Below, in pieces: positions 4,354-55,556 of a stretch of DNA of 64,000 nt (the first letter of the stretch is position 1; each line of letters starts with the position of its first letter). Under the pieces are notes generated by a model. That model made no database searches, had not been told where the DNA came from, and saw nothing but the letters and a program-made list of their open reading frames with translations. This DNA comes from Nymphaea colorata (taxonomy: Eukaryota): the NCBI RefSeq assembly GCF_008831285.2, contig NC_045138.2, forward strand, positions 21,080,001 to 21,144,000, read 5' to 3'. The translations under genes were made by a program, and so were the position numbers.

Positions 4354-7300
4354 TGTTACTTCTATTTTAAACAAGGTCAAGTCCTGAAATTACATTCTGC
4401 AGCTGAAAATTAGTCAAAAGAACTAGGCTTACCTCCGCCCTAGTCTCTGAAACATGGTAATAATTGCTTAGTCTACCAAATAAGCATATTTGCTTGTCCA
4501 AGAAAAATACTTGGTCCATATAGTATGAAAGTACTTGAATTGAAAAAAAAAAAAAAAAAACTCAAACAATGAAGATATTTTTGTGGTATTATAAGCTAAA
4601 CATGCACACAAACAAGTCCTAGAGCACCTCTGAAAGACCCAAAAGCAGAAACCTAAATATCATCTAGGTGGCATGCTAATGCACAAAGTTTAGTATTCTC
4701 CATGCATAATTTTGAATTATCCATTTAGATCTCATGATAAACAGAACTCAGATACCTTGACATTGGATTGGAATTAGGTATGAATTTGGCCGTGAATATT
4801 CCCAGATGATTAGACAATCATTTTGCTGACTGTATTTTTCCATTTTCTAAAATAGTCAAGAAAAGACCCAGAAAGGTTCCTCCATTTCATTGGCCTTGCA
4901 TGAAGAGATGACACTCTAAACTTCAAGTTCTTAATGTGATTCAACTTGAATCCATTAAACAATAAATCCAACCCCAGGGCTGCACCATATCATGGACTTC
5001 TCAAAACATTATATTTATATTGAAGGATTTTACCTTCATTAAATTGTAGCTTAAATTTCAGCCATTAGTTCATTGAAAAGGGTTATGTTCTTCCACAACA
5101 ATTCTAGAAACAAAAATGATACATCATGCTTCTGTGTGTGCAGATGCACGTGTCCTTGTGTGTGTGAGCGAGCGAGAAAGAGAGAGAGAGAAAGAGAGAG
5201 AGAGAAAGAGAGAGAGAAACTACTGAGTGATATCATGCATGTAATCTAACACCAGCCTCCAAGAAATTATTTATGGCAGTTCATTGCATCACAAAGTGCC
5301 AGAACACATAATTACCACAAGAACAAAGGCCTTCAAAGGGGTTCCTATAAGTTACCTTCTCTATGTTCTCTTCGTTTAGCTCAAGACCTCCTGTCTCTTC
5401 ATCTGCAACTTGCTCAACAGCAAAAATTTCTGGGATCCTTTCCATTAGACGCCGTTCAATTCCCATTTTCATAGTCATGACTGAACTTGGACAAGAGCCA
5501 CAAGCTCCTTGCAATTTCAACCTGACAACATTGCCATCTATCTCATGCAAAGCCACATTGCCTCCATCTGACATAAGATAAGGTCGCACTTCATCCAACA
5601 CTGATTCAACATTTTCAGCTGTAAGTGGCAACCCCAATGCAGATTCAGGTGTCGCAACAGCCTTAATTCCTGCATAAACAAAAGAGTCAAACAAATTCAA
5701 CACTCATTTGATATAGAGGAAACCAATTGCATAACTTCCTTTGCAGTAACTTTATAAAATCCATTTGAAGTTTTAAACTCAATCACAAACTAAATCAACC
5801 ATTTTACAAAATGCAATGAAAGAGGATGTTGGCTTCCCAAACATAATCACATGGTAATTCCCCAATAAAAGAAAGACACTCACAGTGAACATAGCATATC
5901 ATAAGTTAAGAATATAATACTCAGGACATCAGACATGTAAATTATACATACATATAAACCCAGAGTCACAAAATTTGGTCCTTCATATCCCAGCAACAGA
6001 AATCTCGTAATAGATATAGGTATCATAAATCTGAAGAAATTAAAAAACACACAAAAGAAAAGAAACAAACTCAAAATATAGGGGGGGAAATTTTAAATCC
6101 ATTATTGACATAAACATAAAGTAGCCTGAAAAATTGATGCCAACTTGACTTTTTAAGTTTTAAATCTTCTCCAAGAAAATTCTCTACTAGTCTGATATTC
6201 TCAATGTAATAATCGACACACTCAATACCTTTATATTTATTGGACCAACAATAAAGCATTTTGAGGAATTGACCAACTGAACAAGAAAGTTCAGAATTTT
6301 GAAACTAGTTTGACAAGACCATTAGCTTGAGATTGGTACCACAAGATTGGCTGTCGTAATGAAGCTTAAAATAGATTACAGCAGATGGACATGAATCATT
6401 AAGCAAATAAGCTAGACAGTAATAAATCCTTTTGAAAGAATACTTATAGAAATATGTGATCAACCATTTCGTTGAAAAAAGGACATAATAAAAGTTCCAA
6501 AAAAGATTATTATTGAAAACCAGATATGAGAAAATGCATGAACAAGAGGAACACATCCTTAATACAATAAAAAACATATTTCTTCTTTGACATTGTTTCT
6601 GTGTCACTTAGCTTTAATTAATAAAACTAGAGCCCAAAGCAAAACCAGGGAACCAATCAAAAGGTAAACAACTTAAAAGGAACATTCATGACAATGGACC
6701 CACTTTAAACAGATAATTCCAGAAAGGGGATGGGATTGTCCTTTATAAACCCTAAAAAAGAAGCATCATTCTCAGATTTAAAACTTATGACTGCATACAT
6801 GCATCTGCAGAGTACTTACCCTGCATTCACAATTGGGAAAGAAGAAACCATTCAACCAATGAAAATTTGCAATGAAGCCATCTTCTATAAGAATAGCAGT
6901 TTGAAAAATATATCTGCGTGTGAAATTCAAAAGAACCTATAGATATTGGAGACTTGATTAAAAAGGAAATGTCCACAGATGTTAAGACTTCAGGCAGACT
7001 GCTTTTAGCCAAGAAGTTTCACAGTGTTAAGACCTTGTCTGATATTAACAAGTGTAATCCAAGAAGTATATCATATTAGCCAGACTTCGACAATCTATGA
7101 AAACAATACAAGATAGAAATCATCCTCTCATAAATAAAAGTGAATACCCCGGTTCGAAATCAAAGAGAAAGACAATCGTCCTTACTAGGGAACTAATCCT
7201 CAAACAATTAGCAACTCACTTTATGCTGCAATCAGTTTCCCAAGTGAAAGTAAAATTCCAAAGGGCATCTACACTTTCTTCTTTGAAGATGGCCCGGAAA

Positions 7301-10278: not shown

Positions 10279-13932
<3,654 letters not shown>

Positions 13933-28603: not shown

Positions 28604-30423
28604 ATGTTAATTTCTCAAAAAATTTAAGAGCAATTCTGTTATTTTAGATATTAAAAAGAATTCAAAAGTCAATATAAATTTAAAGATTCAAAAATCGATG
28701 AGGGGGTGCACCTAGACACCAAGTCCTCAAATAATGCTATCTTTTTCCTTGACCAGAGGTTGAGTAAGCAAGTGCTTTTCTTCCCCATCCCCATGAAAAC
28801 ATATCAACAAGTGGGTTCCATCAGCACATTATTTTGTTGTTATTGGATAGGAGGATGCTGGGATACTCTGTCCTCAGGGCGTGTTCCTTAGACTAAGGAT
28901 CTCAAATCCTTCGGGATCTTAAATCCATAGATTTTATGTCCCACCTCTCCCATTCGATCCCAAATCAGAGGTTTTTAAAGGGAAATATAAATTTAAGATC
29001 CATGTTTTTCAATCATATGGAGATTCGCTGTTCGTTTAAACAGTGGATGAATCACAGGGGATCTCGGATCCATGGGCAAGCAAACACCAACAAGAGTAGT
29101 GTTAGTGTTTGCATCTTCTGCTACTGTTGCAGCTAGGATTGTTCATGCAGGTGGTGAGAGAAGACAAGTGGTTAAGACATGGTTCCTGTGATTTTGGCTG
29201 TCATTTCCATTTAGGAGAAGAAAAATAGAAGTTTTTTCTAATCTATTCCTGAATTATAGGCAATTGATGAATTAAGGCCTGCCTTACTGCTATTGACAAA
29301 TCGAGTCTTCCCTTTCTTATATTTTTAGAATTAACTAATATCAACTAAAGCTAGTTTTTTTTAAAAAAATAAAAGTATGGCAACATATAACTATATATAT
29401 AAAAGCCTGAGCTCAATTTTTACATACGGCTCGTTTTCTAAACAGAAAAACTTACTGAATATTTCTAGGTAAAATTTAGTACCATAGTTTTATCATAATA
29501 TCGAAGTCCATGGGTGGCATATGTGTCTTGGTGAATATACATAAAACATAGCTGTGTATACATATATTTAAAATACCAAATTTGGAAAACAAAAAAAAAT
29601 ATTGAGATCTTATTCATGAAAGAAATAAAAAATCAGAAGTTTTAAGTTTTCTTGAGTTATAAATTCTGTTTTATAGACTAAATAGTTGGACAATATTTAT
29701 ATAATAAAGCTTTTGAAAATATCGTCAAAACACCGGGCATCCCAAACTTAAATTAAAAATTATCTTAAAACTGTAAAAACGAACATGGAAAAAGAAGTTC
29801 AAAGTGTCAATTGCTTATAAATCGGGGACGGATAAAAAAATAACGCTGTTTTCTTGGGGCCTCCCTGGTTTTTTATCGCCGGGAAAAACTGACGTATCTG
29901 TGAACGTTATTTTTATGTTAAAGAATTGGGGGATGACGTTGGCGCGTGCGTAAGCGAAGCTCCCCCTTGCAGGAATCGTTGACCTTCCGATCCCTTCATT
30001 TGGCCGCTGCGAGTTAGAAAGGGACGGAGGAAACCGGTCCGAGTCGCGCGCGACCGAACCCACTGTGCGGGGTTGGCTCAGGCACGAGGCCGAGCCCCAG
30101 TCCGAGACAGCACTGGGAGGTCTCGCCCCCACCCGACTCATTCCTAGGGCACGATCGCAGCGGTACGTTTCCCGATCGGACGGCCGATTCGGCGGGCTCA
30201 TCAAGGAGTATATGAGGGCCGGGCTCAGGCAACCGTTTGGTTGGCATTCTACAGCCATCTCCGCCGCGCGTCGCCATTCGCCGGCGTCGGATTCCTCCAC
30301 CCAGAAGCCCTTTCACCCTCCAGTCTCCGGGACCGAAGAGGGCCTCGACACTCGACGCCACCTACTCTTCTTTTATCCTCTTTGCCATTCTCGCTCTCCC
30401 TTTCTTTAGGGTTCTGAAGTTTC

Positions 30424-30519
30424 ATGGAGACGGCCAACGCCTCCTTCCGTGAATTTCGCTGCCGGTGTTGCCGTTTCCTCCGCTGCTATTGTTGCTGCTA
30501 CTGCTGTCCGTCTGATTGA
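30424..30519 (+). CDS. Cysteine-rich upstream ORF (31 aa, 9 Cys) in the SHM7-like 5' leader
   Basis: ATG at 30424 (ttcATGG) to TGA at 30517-30519 gives METANASFREFRCRCCRFLRCYCCCYCCPSD, ending 105 nt before the main ATG. The ORF is directly visible; its translation is inferred. Confidence 0.6.
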   Translation: METANASFREFRCRCCRFLRCYCCCYCCPSD

Positions 30520-30598
30520 AGCCTCGGAGGCGCGGGAAAGAAAGGAAGGAGGAGAGGGGTCGAGGGGAGTAGTAAGAACTTCATCTTTGGTGTTTGTT

Positions 30599-30606
30599 TA
30601 GGGTTT
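30599..30606. promoter_or_regulatory. Telo-box (TAGGGTTT = AAACCCTA reverse complement) in the SHM7-like leader
   Basis: Exact motif between the uORF stop and the main ATG. It is short, so a chance occurrence is possible. Confidence 0.35.
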
Positions 30607-30624
30607 GAAATTTAGGAGTTTGCG

Positions 30625-33600
30625 ATGGATCTGTCGGAATCGCAGTCGAGTCTGTCGCTGGGGTTCCGGCAGCTGAGCCCGCCGCCTCGGACGCCGATCA
30701 CAGACGACTCGATATCGCTGCAGCTCGATTCTGGATTCAGCGACTGCGGAAATGCCCGGCGGATTCCCCTTCAGCTGCTCGACCAGCCCGAGCACACGGA
30801 GAGTAGGGCCGACTCCAACCAGGACCGGGACAAGGAGGAGTTTAGCATCCTCGGGTACACCATGCGCCTGAAGCGCCGGAAGGAGGCGGAGCCGTCTCCC
30901 CCTCGTCCGCCGGTTCCAGCGTTCTTGCGGCCGGATTCGGGGTGCTCGAGCTCCGCGTCGACGAGCAAGCAGGGGATGGTGCAGATGGAGGCGAGGCGGG
31001 CAGCTGTGAGGGCGTGGGCTAACCAGCCGCTCTCGGCTGCCGACGCCGACGTCTGGGAGATCATGGAGAAGGAGAAGGAGCGACAGTTCAGGGGTATTGA
31101 GCTAATCGCGTCGGAGAATTTCGTGTGCAGGGGCGTGCTCGAGGCTCTTGGGAGCCACCTGACCAACAAGTACTCGGAAGGATTGCCTGGGGCGAGATAC
31201 TACATAGGCAACCAATACATCGATCAGATCGAATTGCTTTGCCAGAAGCGGGCGCTGGCAGCTTTTCATCTCGATCCTGAGAAGTGGGGAGTGAACGTGC
31301 AACCGTACTCCTGCACCTCGGCTAATTTCGCCGTTTACACGGGCCTTCTTCTTCCCAAGGATCGGATTATGGGCCTGGATTCACCGTCTGGTGGGCATCT
31401 GAGTCATGGCTATTATACGCCGAGTGGGAAGAAAGTTTCTGGTGCGTCAATCTTCTTCGAGAGCCTGCCGTATAAGGTGAACCTCCAGACGGGATATATC
31501 GACTACGAGAAATTGGAAGAGAAGGCGCTTGACTTTCGGCCCAAGATATTAATATGTGGTGGAAGCTCATACCCACGAGAATGGGATTATTCACGTTTCC
31601 GGCAGATTGCTGATAAATGTGGAGCTGTATTAATGTGCGACATGGCACAGATCGGTGGTCTTATAGCTGCCAAGGTATGAAATTATGTTGAAATTCTGGT
31701 ACAAGCTGTTGATTTCGTTGGTTTTATTGTGTTTCTGAGCTCAATCCACTATTTCAACCCCAATTTTTGCTGTGCGGAATCAATTTCTAGGTATGAGCCT
31801 TGCCTGGTATTTTCTTCTGTACTTCGATAATCCATTTCTTTGATTGGTGAAATCTTCATTATAAATTGGGAAGCATGTGGCAACTCCATCTTGTGCGGAT
31901 GTTTTAGCTATTGACGATGCTTCGTGTATACAGTCGGTTATCATAATTATACATAAGAAAGTCTGGCGTTTGAACTTTTACATAGATAAACTGCTAGGAT
32001 TTAGTTTGTGAATTGTGATAGTATTAGGCACTGACGTTGGGGTAAACTTGTCCCATTAGCATTCCGAGTCCATCCCACGAAAGAGATGAATTGGAAAAAG
32101 GAAAATTGTATTTATCTCTAGTGAAAAACAAACAATTATCTATAGATTAATTGCCAAAGGAATGTAGTGCGATCTAGCCATTTAAAATACTGAATCTGAA
32201 GCTGTGACTACTATAGCAGTACACGTAGATCTTGCACTGCTTTCTCATCGGTGTAATCCATAGTATGGAGTTGCACAGTTACAAAATGCCAAACCCTTAG
32301 AGCACTTCTGATTTTTCTTATCCTTACTGTACTAATGGCAATTGAACACATAGCGAGGAAGTTCTTCACCACCGTACATCTTTGTATACCTGAAACTGGA
32401 TGCAAAAAGTCTGTGGGAAGAGGTCCAACTTTCTTCACCCATTTTTTGGGTGCAATTACTAAATGCACTGGGGGAAGCAATTTGTGGAGAATCTTAATAT
32501 CTTATATGCCCCTAAGATCGGATTACCTTGTTTCTCTGGTGTTGGTCTGCTGGTACTTCTTTCATAGGGGTGAGTTTCCTTCTTCTCTTTCCATTTCTTT
32601 TCCAGATCTGCAATTTTTAGGTGTCTATACATCATGAAAATTAAAAGAAGGGGATTACATCTCAAACCAACCACTGATAGCATAGCAGGTGAATGTTGAG
32701 CATGGTAGGTGAGTGTTGATGTGTCCGGCAAAGCTATTTGTGATTGATGCTGCTTAGAATAATTTGCCTGATCATGTTTAGATCAACTCTAGTAGCTTTC
32801 TGCATAGAAACAGACAAAAGAATCTGTTTTGTAGGATAAGAATTGAGCACTCCATGCTTTGATTTTGTGGTCTGGTTACAAGTGAAATGGGAACACTTGC
32901 TAATGCGACATGTCCTACATCTCTGAGATAATCAGAATCGGTAGAATTTGTAGGGCACAGGTTACTCAGCAATCTTTCTACGATCCATTTTAATGAGAAT
33001 CTGTAGGGAGCTTTATTCGCATCTTGCACTTATTGTGTTCCATGTGAAAATCCTCACCAGCTCTATTTGCAGACACTCAATATTATTCTCGAATCTCCTC
33101 TTGTCATCATATGGTCCCATGGCAAGTTCTTTTGTCTTCTTGGTGTTCTTGGAACTAGACAAACTTTTGTAAACATCAAATGGTTTAGCTTGTATCAGAC
33201 ATCATTGTTATGATCCATATGATCCTTGCTGTTAGATCTTTTTTCTTTGTTCAATGTGCATGTGGCTCACAGATGTGCATGCACAAGAAACTGATTTGGT
33301 CTAGTTTTTTCTTTTTCAATTGTTTATGATATGGTTTACTGAAACCTTGGTTGATGTCTGAAGTTCATTGAACTGAATCCTTTATTGGTAGTGTTCTTTT
33401 TTCCTTTTTTTTCTTCTTCTTTTTGGCTTGAGTATCTTGAGTAAGTCTGATTTTTAGTTCCTCTTTGGTTCTTTTTCCTAAAGTTGCAGCTTATAGTTTC
33501 TTGCACTAATTAGCTCACTGGCACACTGCCTACTTTTTCGTTAGTTGCTTAATTGTTCAATGACGCTATTTGCAGGAATGCTTAAGCCCGTTTGATTATT

Positions 33601-36600
33601 GTGACATTGTTACATCAACAACCCACAAAAGCCTCCGGGGCCCAAGAGGTGGTATAATCTTCTACAGGAAGGGGGTAAGACCAAAGAGACGAGGATTATG
33701 CAGTTATCCATCGGCTGAAAATGAGCAGTACGATTTTGAAGAGAGGATAAATTTTGCTGTTTTCCCATCATTACAAGGTGGGCCTCACAATAATCATATT
33801 GCTGCTCTAGCAGTAGCCTTAAAACAGATTGCCAGCCCTGAGTACAAAGCTTACATGCAACAAGTGAAGAGAAATGCTCAAGCTTTTGCAGCTGCTTTGC
33901 TGAGAAGAAAATGTCGGCTTGTCACTGGAGGCACCGACAACCATTTGCTGTTATGGGATTTAAGGCCTTTGGGTTTAACAGGTAAACATTGACTTTCGTC
34001 TTTTGACTTCATAATCCCTTCATTGGATAGTTTTGGAGTAATTACTAAATGAAATAAACCAAATGCTCAGGCAGTAAACGTTTCCCAATTTTATATATTT
34101 TATTTCTGCTTTTTTCTGCGGATCGGTTAAAGTTTTGGGTAGCTCACCAGTATAGACACTGCTTTAGAAATATTTCTTTTCAAAAAGCAAAGGCAAAATT
34201 ATCACAGTATGTTCATATAAAGTATGACATAAATATCTGAGAATTTCCTGAAATTCTTGTAGAATAACAATTAGGTCTTTTAAGAATTACAACATGGCTG
34301 CCTATTTTGGTTTAGTTAATTTTTTCCTTATTGTAAGGGTATATTTACATCTCTTCTTAAGAATCACTGGGTAGTCATCATGCAAACTTTTCCTTTTCTC
34401 TACGTGCTTTTTTTTCTTGTGAAATAATATAAAAGTTTAGCATCCTGGGCAATTTCCATAACTGAGATACTTGCTACTCTAATGATAGATGTCCACGTCA
34501 CTAATTTTTCTGAGGGTGTGCATTCTCTCACACACACCCAAAATTTGATCTGCCATGGTTGATCTTAATAATGTGGCCCACTATGCAGAAGAGGTTTTTC
34601 TTAATAGGTGTATGAACTACTAGGACCCATGATCTATGTTTTTTCTTGAATGCAAACCGTAATAATGTCAGGGATGTATTTTGAGAATCTCATGGCTCAT
34701 GCTGCTAATATCAAAGCAATATGAAACATTTTTTACAGGAAAATCTTGTGATATTTACAAAATGTCGCCAAAAGTATTTCTTGAGATAGTAGTATGATGA
34801 TTTTCATTTTTTACAAATTTTTTTGATGCATTATCAGTGTGTGTTTACATTTTTTGTTTATTTTTAAAATTTTAAAATGATTTCAAATTTATCAATATGT
34901 TTTTAAGATCATCAGTAGAGACCTCTTAATTCCATAATTTTTTAAGTTTATTTGTTTTCCTGAATTCCTGGGATTTTCCCAAGAAAAACAAGTTTGTCAA
35001 GCGATAGACTAGGAAAATGTTGCCGATAAAGCTGGAGAACAATATTTGTGGCTATAGGACTGTGAACACATTGGTCCAATTAGAAGTGCATTTTACAGAA
35101 CAAGATGTGTACTTCCTAACACTGGACAGCATTCTTTGGTGTGGTAATTCTTTTCTTGTTTACCTAGCTTTAGCATGTTTAATATCAGGTGAAATGCCTA
35201 AGCATTTGAAAAGTTTTTGTATAAATCTACACAAGACCTCAAAAGTTGGAGACTATCTGCCCCACTTGTTATAATCATTTTTCCCCTTGAATTCAGGAAA
35301 GTTGTTTGCCTAATCTTTTTTTAATGTTTAGGAAGAAGTTTTTCCTATTTCCTCTGTATTTCCAGTTGCATACCATATTACAGTAAATAGACATGTAAAG
35401 AGGGAAGCTAATAATATGATTTTGATGAACACTGGTTCCTTGTGGACCTCTAAAAATGCCAATAGTTTTTGCATGCAATAGGGTGACAACAAAAAGTAAT
35501 ATCCACCTAGAAAGGTTTCTTCGAGTAATGTGCTCATAGATTTTCAACTTTGATAATCTGGTGATTTATATGCTTGTTGGATAAATTATGATGTAAAACT
35601 AACACTGTTTTGAACTGCCTTTTAAATGTCTGTGAGGACATCATAAAACTGCGCTATGGCTCTAATGTTTGTTTTACAAGTTAAAGCTTCATAGCAATGC
35701 TTATAATTTAGTTTATAGATGCTTCAGTTTGTTGAGTTGGGAATACATGGCAAGAACTCTGAAACTTCAGAAAAATGTTCCACTTCACGATTGTCTTGGT
35801 TAAGGCTTTTTCTTGGTTAAGGCTTCTGCTTTGGCCTTTGGTTCAGGTTCTCTTTTGCTTTGACTTGCATCCCTTAGCTGTGATGTTTCTCAATATGCTT
35901 GGTGTGGACTTCAGTTTTATTTTTCACCCATTATGTTTGCAATCCAAAGAAAAGGTGCAGTTAATTCATTACCGGGCATCTTAAAGTCTCTGTTTTTACT
36001 TTTTAAGTATGGAAATTTGACGGTAGAAAAACTATATTTTCTGTGTGCTATGTGATGGATGCTGTTAAATTGGGGTTAGCACTGCGTTTTAAATTGTTTA
36101 TTGCGGCAAATGACTTGTTTGATGTTGTTTTGTATCATTGTGTTGGACATTCTGAGTTTTTTTTTTTCGAATGCTTGTCCTTTAGGCCCGACATGTCTCA
36201 TCGACTAAAACAGAGATTGTTTCTTGTTATGTTCAATGACGTCTTGACATTACCAATAGCTCAGTCTGGCTGTCCTCTTTATGGATGTAACAGCTGTTAG
36301 TCTTCTGGAAGAATTCAAAGTTTCGACATCTATGGCTGGCTAGTTGTCAGCCTCCTTTACGGTGCAAGTTGAATAGTTTCTGCACTTAAAATGGTTCTTA
36401 AATTCTATACTTCATGGTGACAGGGTAATGAGTATGTGTCCTGGATGCAATATGATATGAGGATATCTGGTTGGAGTTGTCTGTCTGCCAATTAATATCC
36501 CACGTGATGTTTTTTAATCAAGGGGTTCCTGCTGCAAGTTATACAATAGCATTTAAGAATCCATTTCTGCATGTAATGCCGAGTCAATGACTGTTCATGG

Positions 36601-37224
36601 CCCCCCCCACAAACTATACTCACTGAAATATTCGCCACTATAATTATTTGTGCAACTTTAAGATGTATATTTTGTTTTAGGTAGAACTACCAACAAATTA
36701 CACACAATTTCATATTTATTGATATTTGAGAGGATTGTACTCAATGGAAAGTTCTGATGTTTCTTTCTCTCAACCGTTTGTCAGGTAAAAGCTACGAAAA
36801 GGTTTGTGAAATGTGCCACATTAGCCTAAACAAAAGCGCAATATTCGGCGACAACGGTGCTGTTTCTCCTGGGGGTGTGAGGATTGGTAAGTATTAGGAG
36901 ATCAGGATTTTGCTTTGTTTGTTACAGATGAGAGTGAAACGCTTACTGTACTGCACACAATTATCTCACTCTGATTGGTGGTTGTTTCACCTATGATCAG
37001 GAACTCAGGCAATGACGACTAGGGGCTGCTTGGAGAATGATTTTGAGACGATAGCAGAGCTTCTTCTCAAGGCAGCTCAGATTGGAAATGCCATCCACAA
37101 GGAACACGGGAAGTTGCAGAAGGATTTCTTGAAGGGCCTCCACAGCAACAAGGATGTCCTTGAGCTGAGGAACCGCGTGGAGAATTTCGCGTCCCAGTTT
37201 GCTCTGCCTGCATTCGACTTGTGA
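30625..37224 (+). CDS. SHM7: Nuclear-type serine hydroxymethyltransferase (SHM6/SHM7-MSA1 clade); exons 30625-31674, 33576-33981, 36785-36886, 37001-37224; 593 aa
   Basis: SHMT motifs [34 protein letters not shown] (PLP lysine), [10 protein letters not shown] and GGTDNHL are present. There is a ~130-aa N-terminal extension with a basic patch (RLKRRKE) and an internal KGVRPKRR insertion typical of the SHM6/7 clade. Junctions are GT-AG and lengths 1050+406+102+224=1782 nt are in frame. SHM6 and SHM7 cannot be distinguished here. Confidence 0.95.
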
Positions 37225-54332: not shown

Positions 54333-55364
54333 CTACCGCTGCCGCCGGGTGCAGATGTCGAGGAGCTTCTTCCTGCCCTCGACGATCTCGTCGAAGAAGT
54401 CGTCCAGCTGCGCCACCACGGCCTCCAGCCCGGCCTTGAACGACCCGAAGCACTCCCTGAGCGTCTCTACCTTCTCGGAGACGGCCGACACCGCCGTATC
54501 GGCTTTCCCCTGAGCCCGCAGGTCCAACAGCGCCCAGATGTCGTCCATCACCGCCTGAGATCGCCTCAGCTCGTAGAGGAGGATCGCCGGCGGCCTCGCT
54601 CCTCCACCGCCGCCGATGCGCTCGATCTCTGCCGCCGCCCGGCGGTGAAGCCCCGAACCGAAGCAGAGACAGCAGCCTTCCTCTTCCTCCTCAGGCGAAG
54701 AGCACCCGCCCATGGAGGCGCCAGAGCCGGAGGGAGGAGAGTAGTGGGCGAGGCCCCAGAGTAGGAGGATGAGGAGGAGGGAGCTGGCGTTGCTCATGGC
54801 GAAGAGCACACCTCGGAAGCCGTTGAACTTGCCGGCCGAGCCAACGCGGCGGCCCTCGAAGCGGACGAGGTCGCCGATGCGGGCGTCGACGAGGGCTTTG
54901 TTGTCCTCCTCAAGGCTAACGGCCTCCCGCCGGCAGCCGGAGATGCTTCGCATGACCTGTCGGCAGAGGGCGGGCGCGGAGGCGGAGGACCACCACCGGC
55001 CGTCGGTCATGAGCGGCAGGGCGGCCTCCACGGCGGCCTGGTATCCCTCGAGCCCCGAGGCCGCCGACTTGAGGACGTGGCAGGCGCTCCACAGCTTGGC
55101 GCTCTCGTCCATGTAGTCGTCCAGCCACTTGTCCCCAGCAGGCAGCCGCAGGCTCTGCACCAGCCGCACGAGCTCCCCGTGCAGCGACCGCAGCAGCCCC
55201 AGCGCCTCGTTCACCCATCTCGCGCTCATGAAGCAGTCGTCGTCGTCGTCCTCCCCCCCTCCCACTCCGCCGCCGCATCCCCTCCCCTTCGACGCTATGC
55301 TCTCCTCCAGATCCTCCATCCCTCTCCTCAGCTTCGCATAGAATCCACTGATCGACGCTTCCAT
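54333..55364 (-). CDS. BPS1-like / DUF793 family protein (At1g22030-type), single exon, 343 aa
   Basis: GC-rich ORF with family motifs LVQSLRLPAGDKWLDDYMDESAKLWSACHVLK, GCRREAVSLEEDNK, FNGFRGVLFAMSNASSLLL and QLDDFFDEIVEGRKKLLDIC. Confidence 0.9.
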   Translation of the reverse strand: MEASISGFYAKLRRGMEDLEESIASKGRGCGGGVGGGEDDDDDCFMSARWVNEALGLLRSLHGELVRLVQSLRLPAGDKWLDDYMDESAKLWSACHVLKSAASGLEGYQAAVEAALPLMTDGRWWSSASAPALCRQVMRSISGCRREAVSLEEDNKALVDARIGDLVRFEGRRVGSAGKFNGFRGVLFAMSNASSLLLILLLWGLAHYSPPSGSGASMGGCSSPEEEEEGCCLCFGSGLHRRAAAEIERIGGGGGARPPAILLYELRRSQAVMDDIWALLDLRAQGKADTAVSAVSEKVETLRECFGSFKAGLEAVVAQLDDFFDEIVEGRKKLLDICTRRQR

Positions 55365-55556
55365 CTTCTTCCCCTTCTTCTCTCTCTCTCCTTTTCCAGA
55401 CTCCTCCTCCCCTTCTCTCCTCTTCCCTCGACTGTATTGGATTCGATCCTCTTCTCAGTCGCCTCGCTCTCTCCTCTATCTACAGAGGAAGACAGTCGGG
55501 ATGGGGAGGATGGAGAGGCAGTGGGGTGGATGGGCTTCGGCTGCGGAGAGCTCGTA

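Follow-up and report, generated by a model that had tools for sequence, protein, structure and literature searches.

A Cys-rich uORF of probable HG65 type ahead of a water-lily SHM6/7-clade serine hydroxymethyltransferase gene: range across land plants, apparent conservation of Cys content and a possible role in sensing Cys supply

Plant CPuORFs that sense metabolites are known from the polyamine/AdoMetDC and sucrose/bZIP systems. In CGS1, the MTO1 region mediates a SAM-induced stall (PMC13578316). In mycobacteria, poly-Cys short ORFs sense Cys-tRNA and have been described as a 'Cys ribulon', in which two to three consecutive Cys are enough (10.1101/834739). Among plant leaders, CPuORF group HG65 of Takahashi 2020 (ESUCA) is listed before SHMT genes in poplar (POPTR_0002s09080) and grape (VIT_12s0034g02380 and VIT_18s0001g04340), with a range in Table S2 that comprises asterids, malvids and fabids only and a Ka/Ks of 0.05-0.20 (PMC7106846, Tables S1-S3). 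The main text of that study names HG65 once, contains the words 'cysteine' and 'hydroxymethyltransferase' nowhere, and offers no Cys-sensing reading (PMC7106846). Poplar HG65 was among the 11 CPuORFs that were frameshift-tested, with a frameshift that removes all of its Cys; five of them were positive, and the text implies that these were HG46, 57, 103 and 107 together with exactly one of HG65, 80, 81 and 87 (PMC7106846). Text matching in ESUCA Table S1 revealed no other Cys-run CPuORF ahead of a sulfur gene (PMC7106846), and a whole-word literature search for HG65 together with uORF returned Takahashi 2020 alone. A search for a published test of Cys or sulfur sensing by an HG65-type uORF found none in the literature covered, with most subscription papers outside that coverage.

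The SHM6/7 clade of SHMTs is tied to sulfur status (PMC5021336; PMC10243980; PMC11003109). Arabidopsis MSA1 (SHM7) is strongly induced by sulfur deficiency and is inactive as an SHMT in vitro (PMC5021336), it is an OAS-cluster gene (PMC10243980), and the rice and Setaria genes mapped to SHM7 show increased mRNA in low sulfur (PMC11003109). No SHM6/7 entry was present in three of the nine supplement files of PMC9305500, in 11 of the 16 of PMC6380273, or in four supplement files of PMC13578316.

To this background we add the analysis of a 64-kb stretch of Nymphaea colorata DNA (64,000 nt, hereafter the window), in which a first-pass annotation had described a 31-codon ORF with nine Cys at residues 13-28, ending 105 nt before the ATG of an SHMT gene. 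This ORF was confirmed at 30424-30519, and the features around it are the following.

30189..30423, + strand: transcribed leader 5' of the uORF (the X1 contig reaches 30189; the TSS may differ)
30212-30409, + strand: 65-codon ATG-ORF in the leader 5' of the uORF, non-conserved
30407-30414, + strand: TTAGGGTT in the leader, 5' of the uORF
30424..30519, + strand: Cys-rich uORF, very probably an HG65-type CPuORF (31 aa, nine Cys; start context TTC-ATG-G, with a pyrimidine at -3)
30460..30507, + strand: Cys zone of the uORF, codons 13-28 (nine TGY among Arg, Phe, Leu and Tyr; 3 codons before the stop)
30520..30624, + strand: spacer from the uORF stop to the SHMT ATG (105 nt; in-frame TAG at 30613-30615; no ATG)
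30625..31674, + strand: SHMT coding exon 1, SHM6/7 clade (350 codons; PF00464)
33576..33981, + strand: SHMT exon 2 (splice join in the X1 contig; holds a 12-residue protein motif)
36785..36886, + strand: SHMT exon 3 (borders set by eye from GT/AG sites)
37001..37224, + strand: SHMT exon 4 to the stop

The four SHMT exons total 1782 nt, which gives 593 aa plus the stop, as in the N. colorata protein 'serine hydroxymethyltransferase 7-like' (P0092, 593 aa), to which exon 1 is 100% identical over the 160 residues searched; a Nymphaea paralogue of this SHMT is P0093. The X1 contig is ungapped from 30189 to 31679 and is then joined to exon 2; its run was only guessed to be RNA, and the splice join is the evidence for this. 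Because this contig spans the uORF and exon 1 and splices into exon 2, the uORF lies in the leader of a spliced transcript, and the concern that the region might be spliced out can be set aside. Contigs of three related organisms start in the leader at about 30252-30270. The 65-codon ORF at 30212-30409 was rejected as a conserved element, since two related organisms carry an extra nucleotide (+1) at 30331 within it. In 10 of 17 leaders, as a raw count, a telo-box-like TAGGG occurs in the 60 nt that precede the uAUG (30407-30414 in the window); the promoter motif AYGWAYCT occurs 0-2 times per leader, which is uninformative.

The uORF runs from its ATG at 30424 to a TGA ending at 30519 and encodes METANASFREFRCRCCRFLRCYCCCYCCPSD. 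Its nine Cys codons (three TGT and six TGC) include a longest consecutive run of three. Among the ATG-ORFs of the window, at least 5 Cys in the last 20 codons were found in 1 of 926 on the + strand, namely this uORF, and in 2 of 937 on the - strand, both CVCV from (GT)n repeats; none of 400 dinucleotide shuffles of the window leader reached 5 Cys. Among related water lilies the uORF varies at three sites: 30465 (G>C) and 30471 (C>T) are synonymous changes, in an Arg and a Cys codon, and 30508 (C>T) turns a Pro into Ser, so that no Cys is replaced. In run X12, from a related organism, a 399-nt contig of low depth lacks 7 nt of the uORF at 30440, ends at 30476 and carries a different upstream sequence; it may come from a paralogue or homoeologue whose uORF is disrupted. 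The mixture of TGC and TGT, which had been taken as an argument for the Cys frame, cannot single this frame out, because in the +2 frame this segment translates as a run of Leu.

Homologous leaders were collected by a clade-specific motif scan of metagenome contigs, which yielded 60 loci. Seven loci with incomplete 5' ends and one outside the clade (L030) were dropped before any count, and the remaining 52 were reduced to 21 gene lineages by collapsing 31 near-duplicates on the N-terminus of the main ORF, which together with the window makes 22. Plant groups were assigned from the nearest named proteins and the tree. A leader was counted when, no more than 450 nt from the main ATG, it contained a uORF that starts with AUG and whose final 20 codons include 5 Cys or more.

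By this measure, the element that the first-pass annotation proposed to look for in orthologous leaders was present in 16 of the 22 non-redundant SHM6/7-clade leaders, and a 17th has 4 Cys; control tiles of real plant DNA contained at least 5 Cys in 4 of 525 cases. Beside the water lily, the uORF-bearing lineages comprise a conifer, three grasses, five legumes, two poplar genes, a Caryophyllales-like and an asterid-like lineage, Arabidopsis SHM6, Sphagnum and a second moss. Four loci (L001, L020, L021 and L053) carry the uORF and an uninterrupted full-length CDS on one contig, and are therefore transcript contigs. The moss elements are probably homologous to the seed-plant uORF, on the basis of position and composition only, homology here being more than alignment can show. 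In Colocasia (P0003), Taraxacum (P0007) and Apostasia (P0008), the proteins are annotated with N-terminal extensions in which stretches of Ala/Val or of Leu resemble the +1 or +2 readings of the Cys run, and these protein annotations, rather than DNA, suggest that the Cys uORF is present in these leaders as well.

Five of the 22 leaders have no clear element: Arabidopsis SHM7, L054, L014, L017 and L050. Of these, L054 and L014 count, like SHM7, as losses or decayed copies, and L017 and L050 as ambiguous cases. The soybean-like L054 has kept the uAUG and the N-terminal half and has lost the Cys run, which makes its leader a natural Cys-less control. In the poplar leader L014 the Cys frame is present with no in-frame AUG; in L014, L042 and L059 this frame ends CPCFCCCAL-stop, with an out-of-frame AUG upstream across a CT repeat, and an in-frame CTG could act as a near-cognate start. 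The Cys are dispersed in a second Sphagnum gene (L017), represented also by L027, L044 and L058, which has a conserved 55-codon uORF with six dispersed Cys including one CCC; this uORF stops about 160 nt short of the main ATG, and a likely splice donor comes after it. The moss contig L050 has only 243 nt of leader. In addition, no Cys uORF was found at L061, a bacterial-assembly locus from genome contigs.

The element itself is not new, since it is catalogued as HG65 (PMC7106846, Tables S1-S3), and the window uORF is, with high confidence, a real member of this type. Its AUG and stop lie inside the 5' leader of the X1 contig, and its main ORF is homologous to the HG65 SHMTs, with a PF00464 domain and a place in an angiosperm SHM6/7 clade (support 99) that includes the poplar HG65 gene (L015). 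HG65 membership calls for at least three orders with an unfused uORF; the 16 of 22 leaders cover many orders, and each uORF has its own stop, in all three frames. The L015 uORF is letter-for-letter the listed poplar peptide, and further features shared with the ESUCA entries are an AUG uORF of 33-39 aa, a C-terminal Cys cluster before SHMT and an ME-[TAS]-rich start. Unlike the published group, the present set also includes Nymphaeales, grasses, a conifer, Arabidopsis SHM6 and probably mosses. What is new relative to the catalogue is a much wider range, the apparent selection on Cys content and the sensing hypothesis.

At the level of the peptide, the likeness of the uORF to its homologues, as judged from these comparisons, is mostly compositional. 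BLASTP of the window peptide against the asterid-like L053 was not significant (E 6.9), and against a eudicot profile the window peptide came 1st of 830 as long as composition was left uncorrected, but was not among the top 14 once the correction was applied. The local score against the poplar peptide had a P of 0.011 against full shuffles and 0.064 against zone shuffles. Non-eudicot members were probably missed by the BLAST-based pipeline because the similarity is compositional and BLASTP non-significant.

The conserved feature seems to be Cys content and not a fixed peptide: Cys columns look constrained and others barely, and length, spacer and frame vary. Over 11 close pairs, which exclude the window, pN/pS was 0.22 in Cys columns, 0.78 in other columns and 0.52 overall, the ESUCA mark of purifying selection being a Ka/Ks below 0.5. 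The contrast between columns is inflated by alignments that reward matched Cys, and some of the pairs overlap in descent. When the frame was picked by Cys count, with no ATG required, 16 of 18 leaders had their nearest upstream ATG in that frame (10 of 12 among deep lineages, P about 5e-4), and the other frames had an open ATG-ORF in 4 of 36 slots. In each of the 18 leaders, 0-6 codons separate the last Cys from the stop, which is partly by construction (the scored span allowed 19). Residue order in the last 20 codons gave P<0.05 in 3 of 16 comparisons under zone shuffling. The uORFs are 20-50 aa long, with spacers of 23-335 nt, and occur in all three frames relative to the main ORF (frames 0/1/2 = 6/9/2 among 17 homologues). 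The observation that the uORF is in frame with the main ORF and blocked by a TAG therefore holds for the window gene, where the TAG lies three codons 5' of the SHMT ATG at 30625, but not as a conserved trait; read-through or fusion of the uORF to the main ORF was rejected for the same lack of a conserved frame. A purine at -3 is found at the uAUG in 3 of 17 leaders versus 12 of 17 main AUGs, a weak versus strong start context that suits leaky scanning.

In Arabidopsis, L009 corresponds to SHM7 (identical to PDB 7QX8 over 219 residues) and L057 to SHM6 (PDB 7QPE). The SHM6 (AT1G22020) uORF has 36 aa with six Cys and occupies the stretch from 176 to 65 nt ahead of its main ATG, and no Cys uORF was detected in the 1478 nt upstream of SHM7/MSA1. 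The two genes are sisters (SH-aLRT 94) in a quick tree of 57 rows x 230 columns, in which four of the rows, from mosses or from partial sequences, are short or may carry residues translated from introns. Therefore, the water-lily gene is co-orthologous to both, and it does not group with SHM7 to the exclusion of SHM6. The description of the gene as SHM7/MSA1-type thus survives as an assignment to the SHM6/7 clade, and the direct link to MSA1 falls away, given equal kinship to SHM6 and SHM7 and the absence of the uORF from SHM7. The Nymphaea gene shares with Arabidopsis SHM7/MSA1 an SHMT subclade with a long N-terminal extension; it differs in that SHM7 lacks the uORF, and sulfur induction, nuclear location and SHMT inactivity are features of SHM7, whereas the Nymphaea gene is known from sequence.

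What stands of the first-pass annotation as a whole is a conserved, Cys-selected uORF in an SHM6/7-clade leader, without the novelty of the element and the direct MSA1 link. Our best, though tentative, reading is that this uORF may be a sensor of Cys supply that lowers SHMT translation when charged tRNA-Cys is scarce. The uORF would be translated by ribosomes, with most SHMT made by leaky scanning past the uAUG; if charged tRNA-Cys became scarce, ribosomes would pause on the Cys run, leaky scanners would be blocked, the SHMT start would go unreached and less SHMT would be made. The predicted direction is repression in scarcity, because a paused ribosome in a scanning system would block the leaky scanners. 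That the number of Cys near the stop is selected and their order loose is what a sensor of tRNA charging predicts, and the loss of the uORF from the starvation-induced SHM7/MSA1 is as repression in scarcity predicts. It should be noted that the grass leaders in this set keep the uORF, and repression in scarcity would oppose the mRNA induction of grass genes in low sulfur if the induced paralogue is one of these.

The mycobacterial Cys ribulon is a works-like analogy for such a sensor, with no homology. Both have a short ORF with consecutive Cys codons before a gene tied to sulfur metabolism, whereas the mycobacterial system is bacterial and leaderless, has an RNA duplex over the Shine-Dalgarno sequence, and activates the downstream gene on stalling (10.1101/834739); in the plant leader there is no stable fold, and scanning predicts the opposite sign. 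Of the marks of a polycysteine attenuator, at least two consecutive Cys codons are present (the longest run has three in the window and from 2 to 8 in every one of the 17 homologues, only 2 in some) and an RNA structure switch was not seen in the window leader, where 30380-30650 folds no better than shuffles (z +1.55); an RNA-structure attenuator was accordingly rejected. With metabolite-sensing CPuORFs and CGS1 MTO1, the element shares a cis-acting, peptide-coding leader of a metabolic gene that plausibly works via ribosome stalling; in these systems specific residues are needed at specific positions and the trigger is an excess of ligand, whereas here the abundance of one amino acid appears conserved.

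Most uORFs repress constitutively, and the element could likewise be a constitutive damper, in which slow decoding of Cys codons or nascent-peptide arrest always lowers SHMT translation or mRNA stability with no sulfur tuning. The loss of the uORF in the inducible SHM7 would fit the removal of any brake, and HG65, as one of four candidates, may be the sole eudicot-wide group with sequence-dependent repression in standard protoplast culture (PMC7106846). We place this account on the unlikely side, as it leaves unexplained why Cys were kept from mosses to angiosperms before a sulfur-tied clade while other residues drifted. If instead the peptide itself were the sensor, thiols together with Arg, Phe and Tyr would respond to free cysteine, glutathione, redox or metal, with an arrest near the stop when sulfur is ample that is lifted in starvation. 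Known plant metabolite-sensing CPuORFs do repress at high metabolite (PMC7106846), and such a stall would fit the low-sulfur mRNA induction of SHM7-like grass genes (PMC11003109), the ESUCA Ka/Ks of 0.05-0.20 (PMC7106846) and an [FY]-R-[CY]-like motif seen by eye ahead of the Cys zone in several members. The weak positional conservation (3 of 16 comparisons significant after zone shuffling), the non-Cys pN/pS of 0.78 and a tail after the last Cys that varies from 0 to 6 codons make this ligand-dependent stall unlikely.

A released micropeptide acting in trans, for example S-acylated or metal-binding, would suit the Cys-rich, basic and aromatic C-terminal composition, and the ESUCA authors allow other functions for CPuORFs with no reporter effect (PMC7106846). 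Nevertheless, the length of 20-50 aa and the Cys spacing are variable, the uORF is always in cis to the same gene, and the peptide matched neither Pfam nor any of 1.84 billion protein representatives, so that we regard a functional product of this kind as very unlikely. Least probable of these accounts is a conserved UGY-rich RNA motif or recurrent microsatellite with an incidental peptide. Slippage and decay would give a zone like the one observed, where a single change would turn 56 of 101 non-Cys codons into TGY (103 of 286 in the N-terminal control); translation in the +1 and +2 frames gives runs of Ala/Val and of Leu, and the homology of the moss elements is not demonstrable by alignment. 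Against this stand the 16 of 18 leaders whose AUG is in the Cys frame, with open ATG-ORFs in just 4 of 36 slots of the other frames, the 4 of 525 control tiles, the lack of a stable leader fold (z +1.55), and the differences among related water lilies (two synonymous and one Pro-to-Ser, none at a Cys).

Returning to Cys-supply sensing, a broader form of this reading is more doubtful: a polycysteine uORF that spans the land plants and has been retained since mosses and seed plants diverged might be a eukaryotic codon-run amino-acid sensor that ties translation of the SHM6/7 clade (one-carbon metabolism and SAM supply) to charged tRNA-Cys, and its loss might have freed MSA1 production in sulfur starvation. 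HG65 has so far been catalogued as an anonymous eudicot CPuORF only. Arabidopsis offers a natural pair with and without the element, in that SHM6 has the uORF and SHM7/MSA1 lost it, and this pair, together with the age of the element and the selection on its Cys content, makes testable in a model plant the question of whether a eukaryotic uORF can read the supply of one amino acid via a codon run, like bacterial attenuators. If true, plant sulfur sensing would gain a level of control at translation, and a leader element that acts on sulfur and methyl metabolism would be open to editing.

Elsewhere in the window, the following were observed.

5281-5703, - strand: NFU-type Fe-S scaffold exon, about 25 kb upstream of the SHMT gene and on the opposite strand
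10279-10875, + strand: apparent protein-coding frame, 198 codons stop to stop
54333-55454, - strand: apparent protein-coding frame, 373 codons stop to stop

In databases, the orchid and banana proteins P0008 and P0009 are entered as NFU (PF01106)-SHMT fusions, which probably represent merged neighbours, hinting at an old linkage of NFU and SHM6/7.
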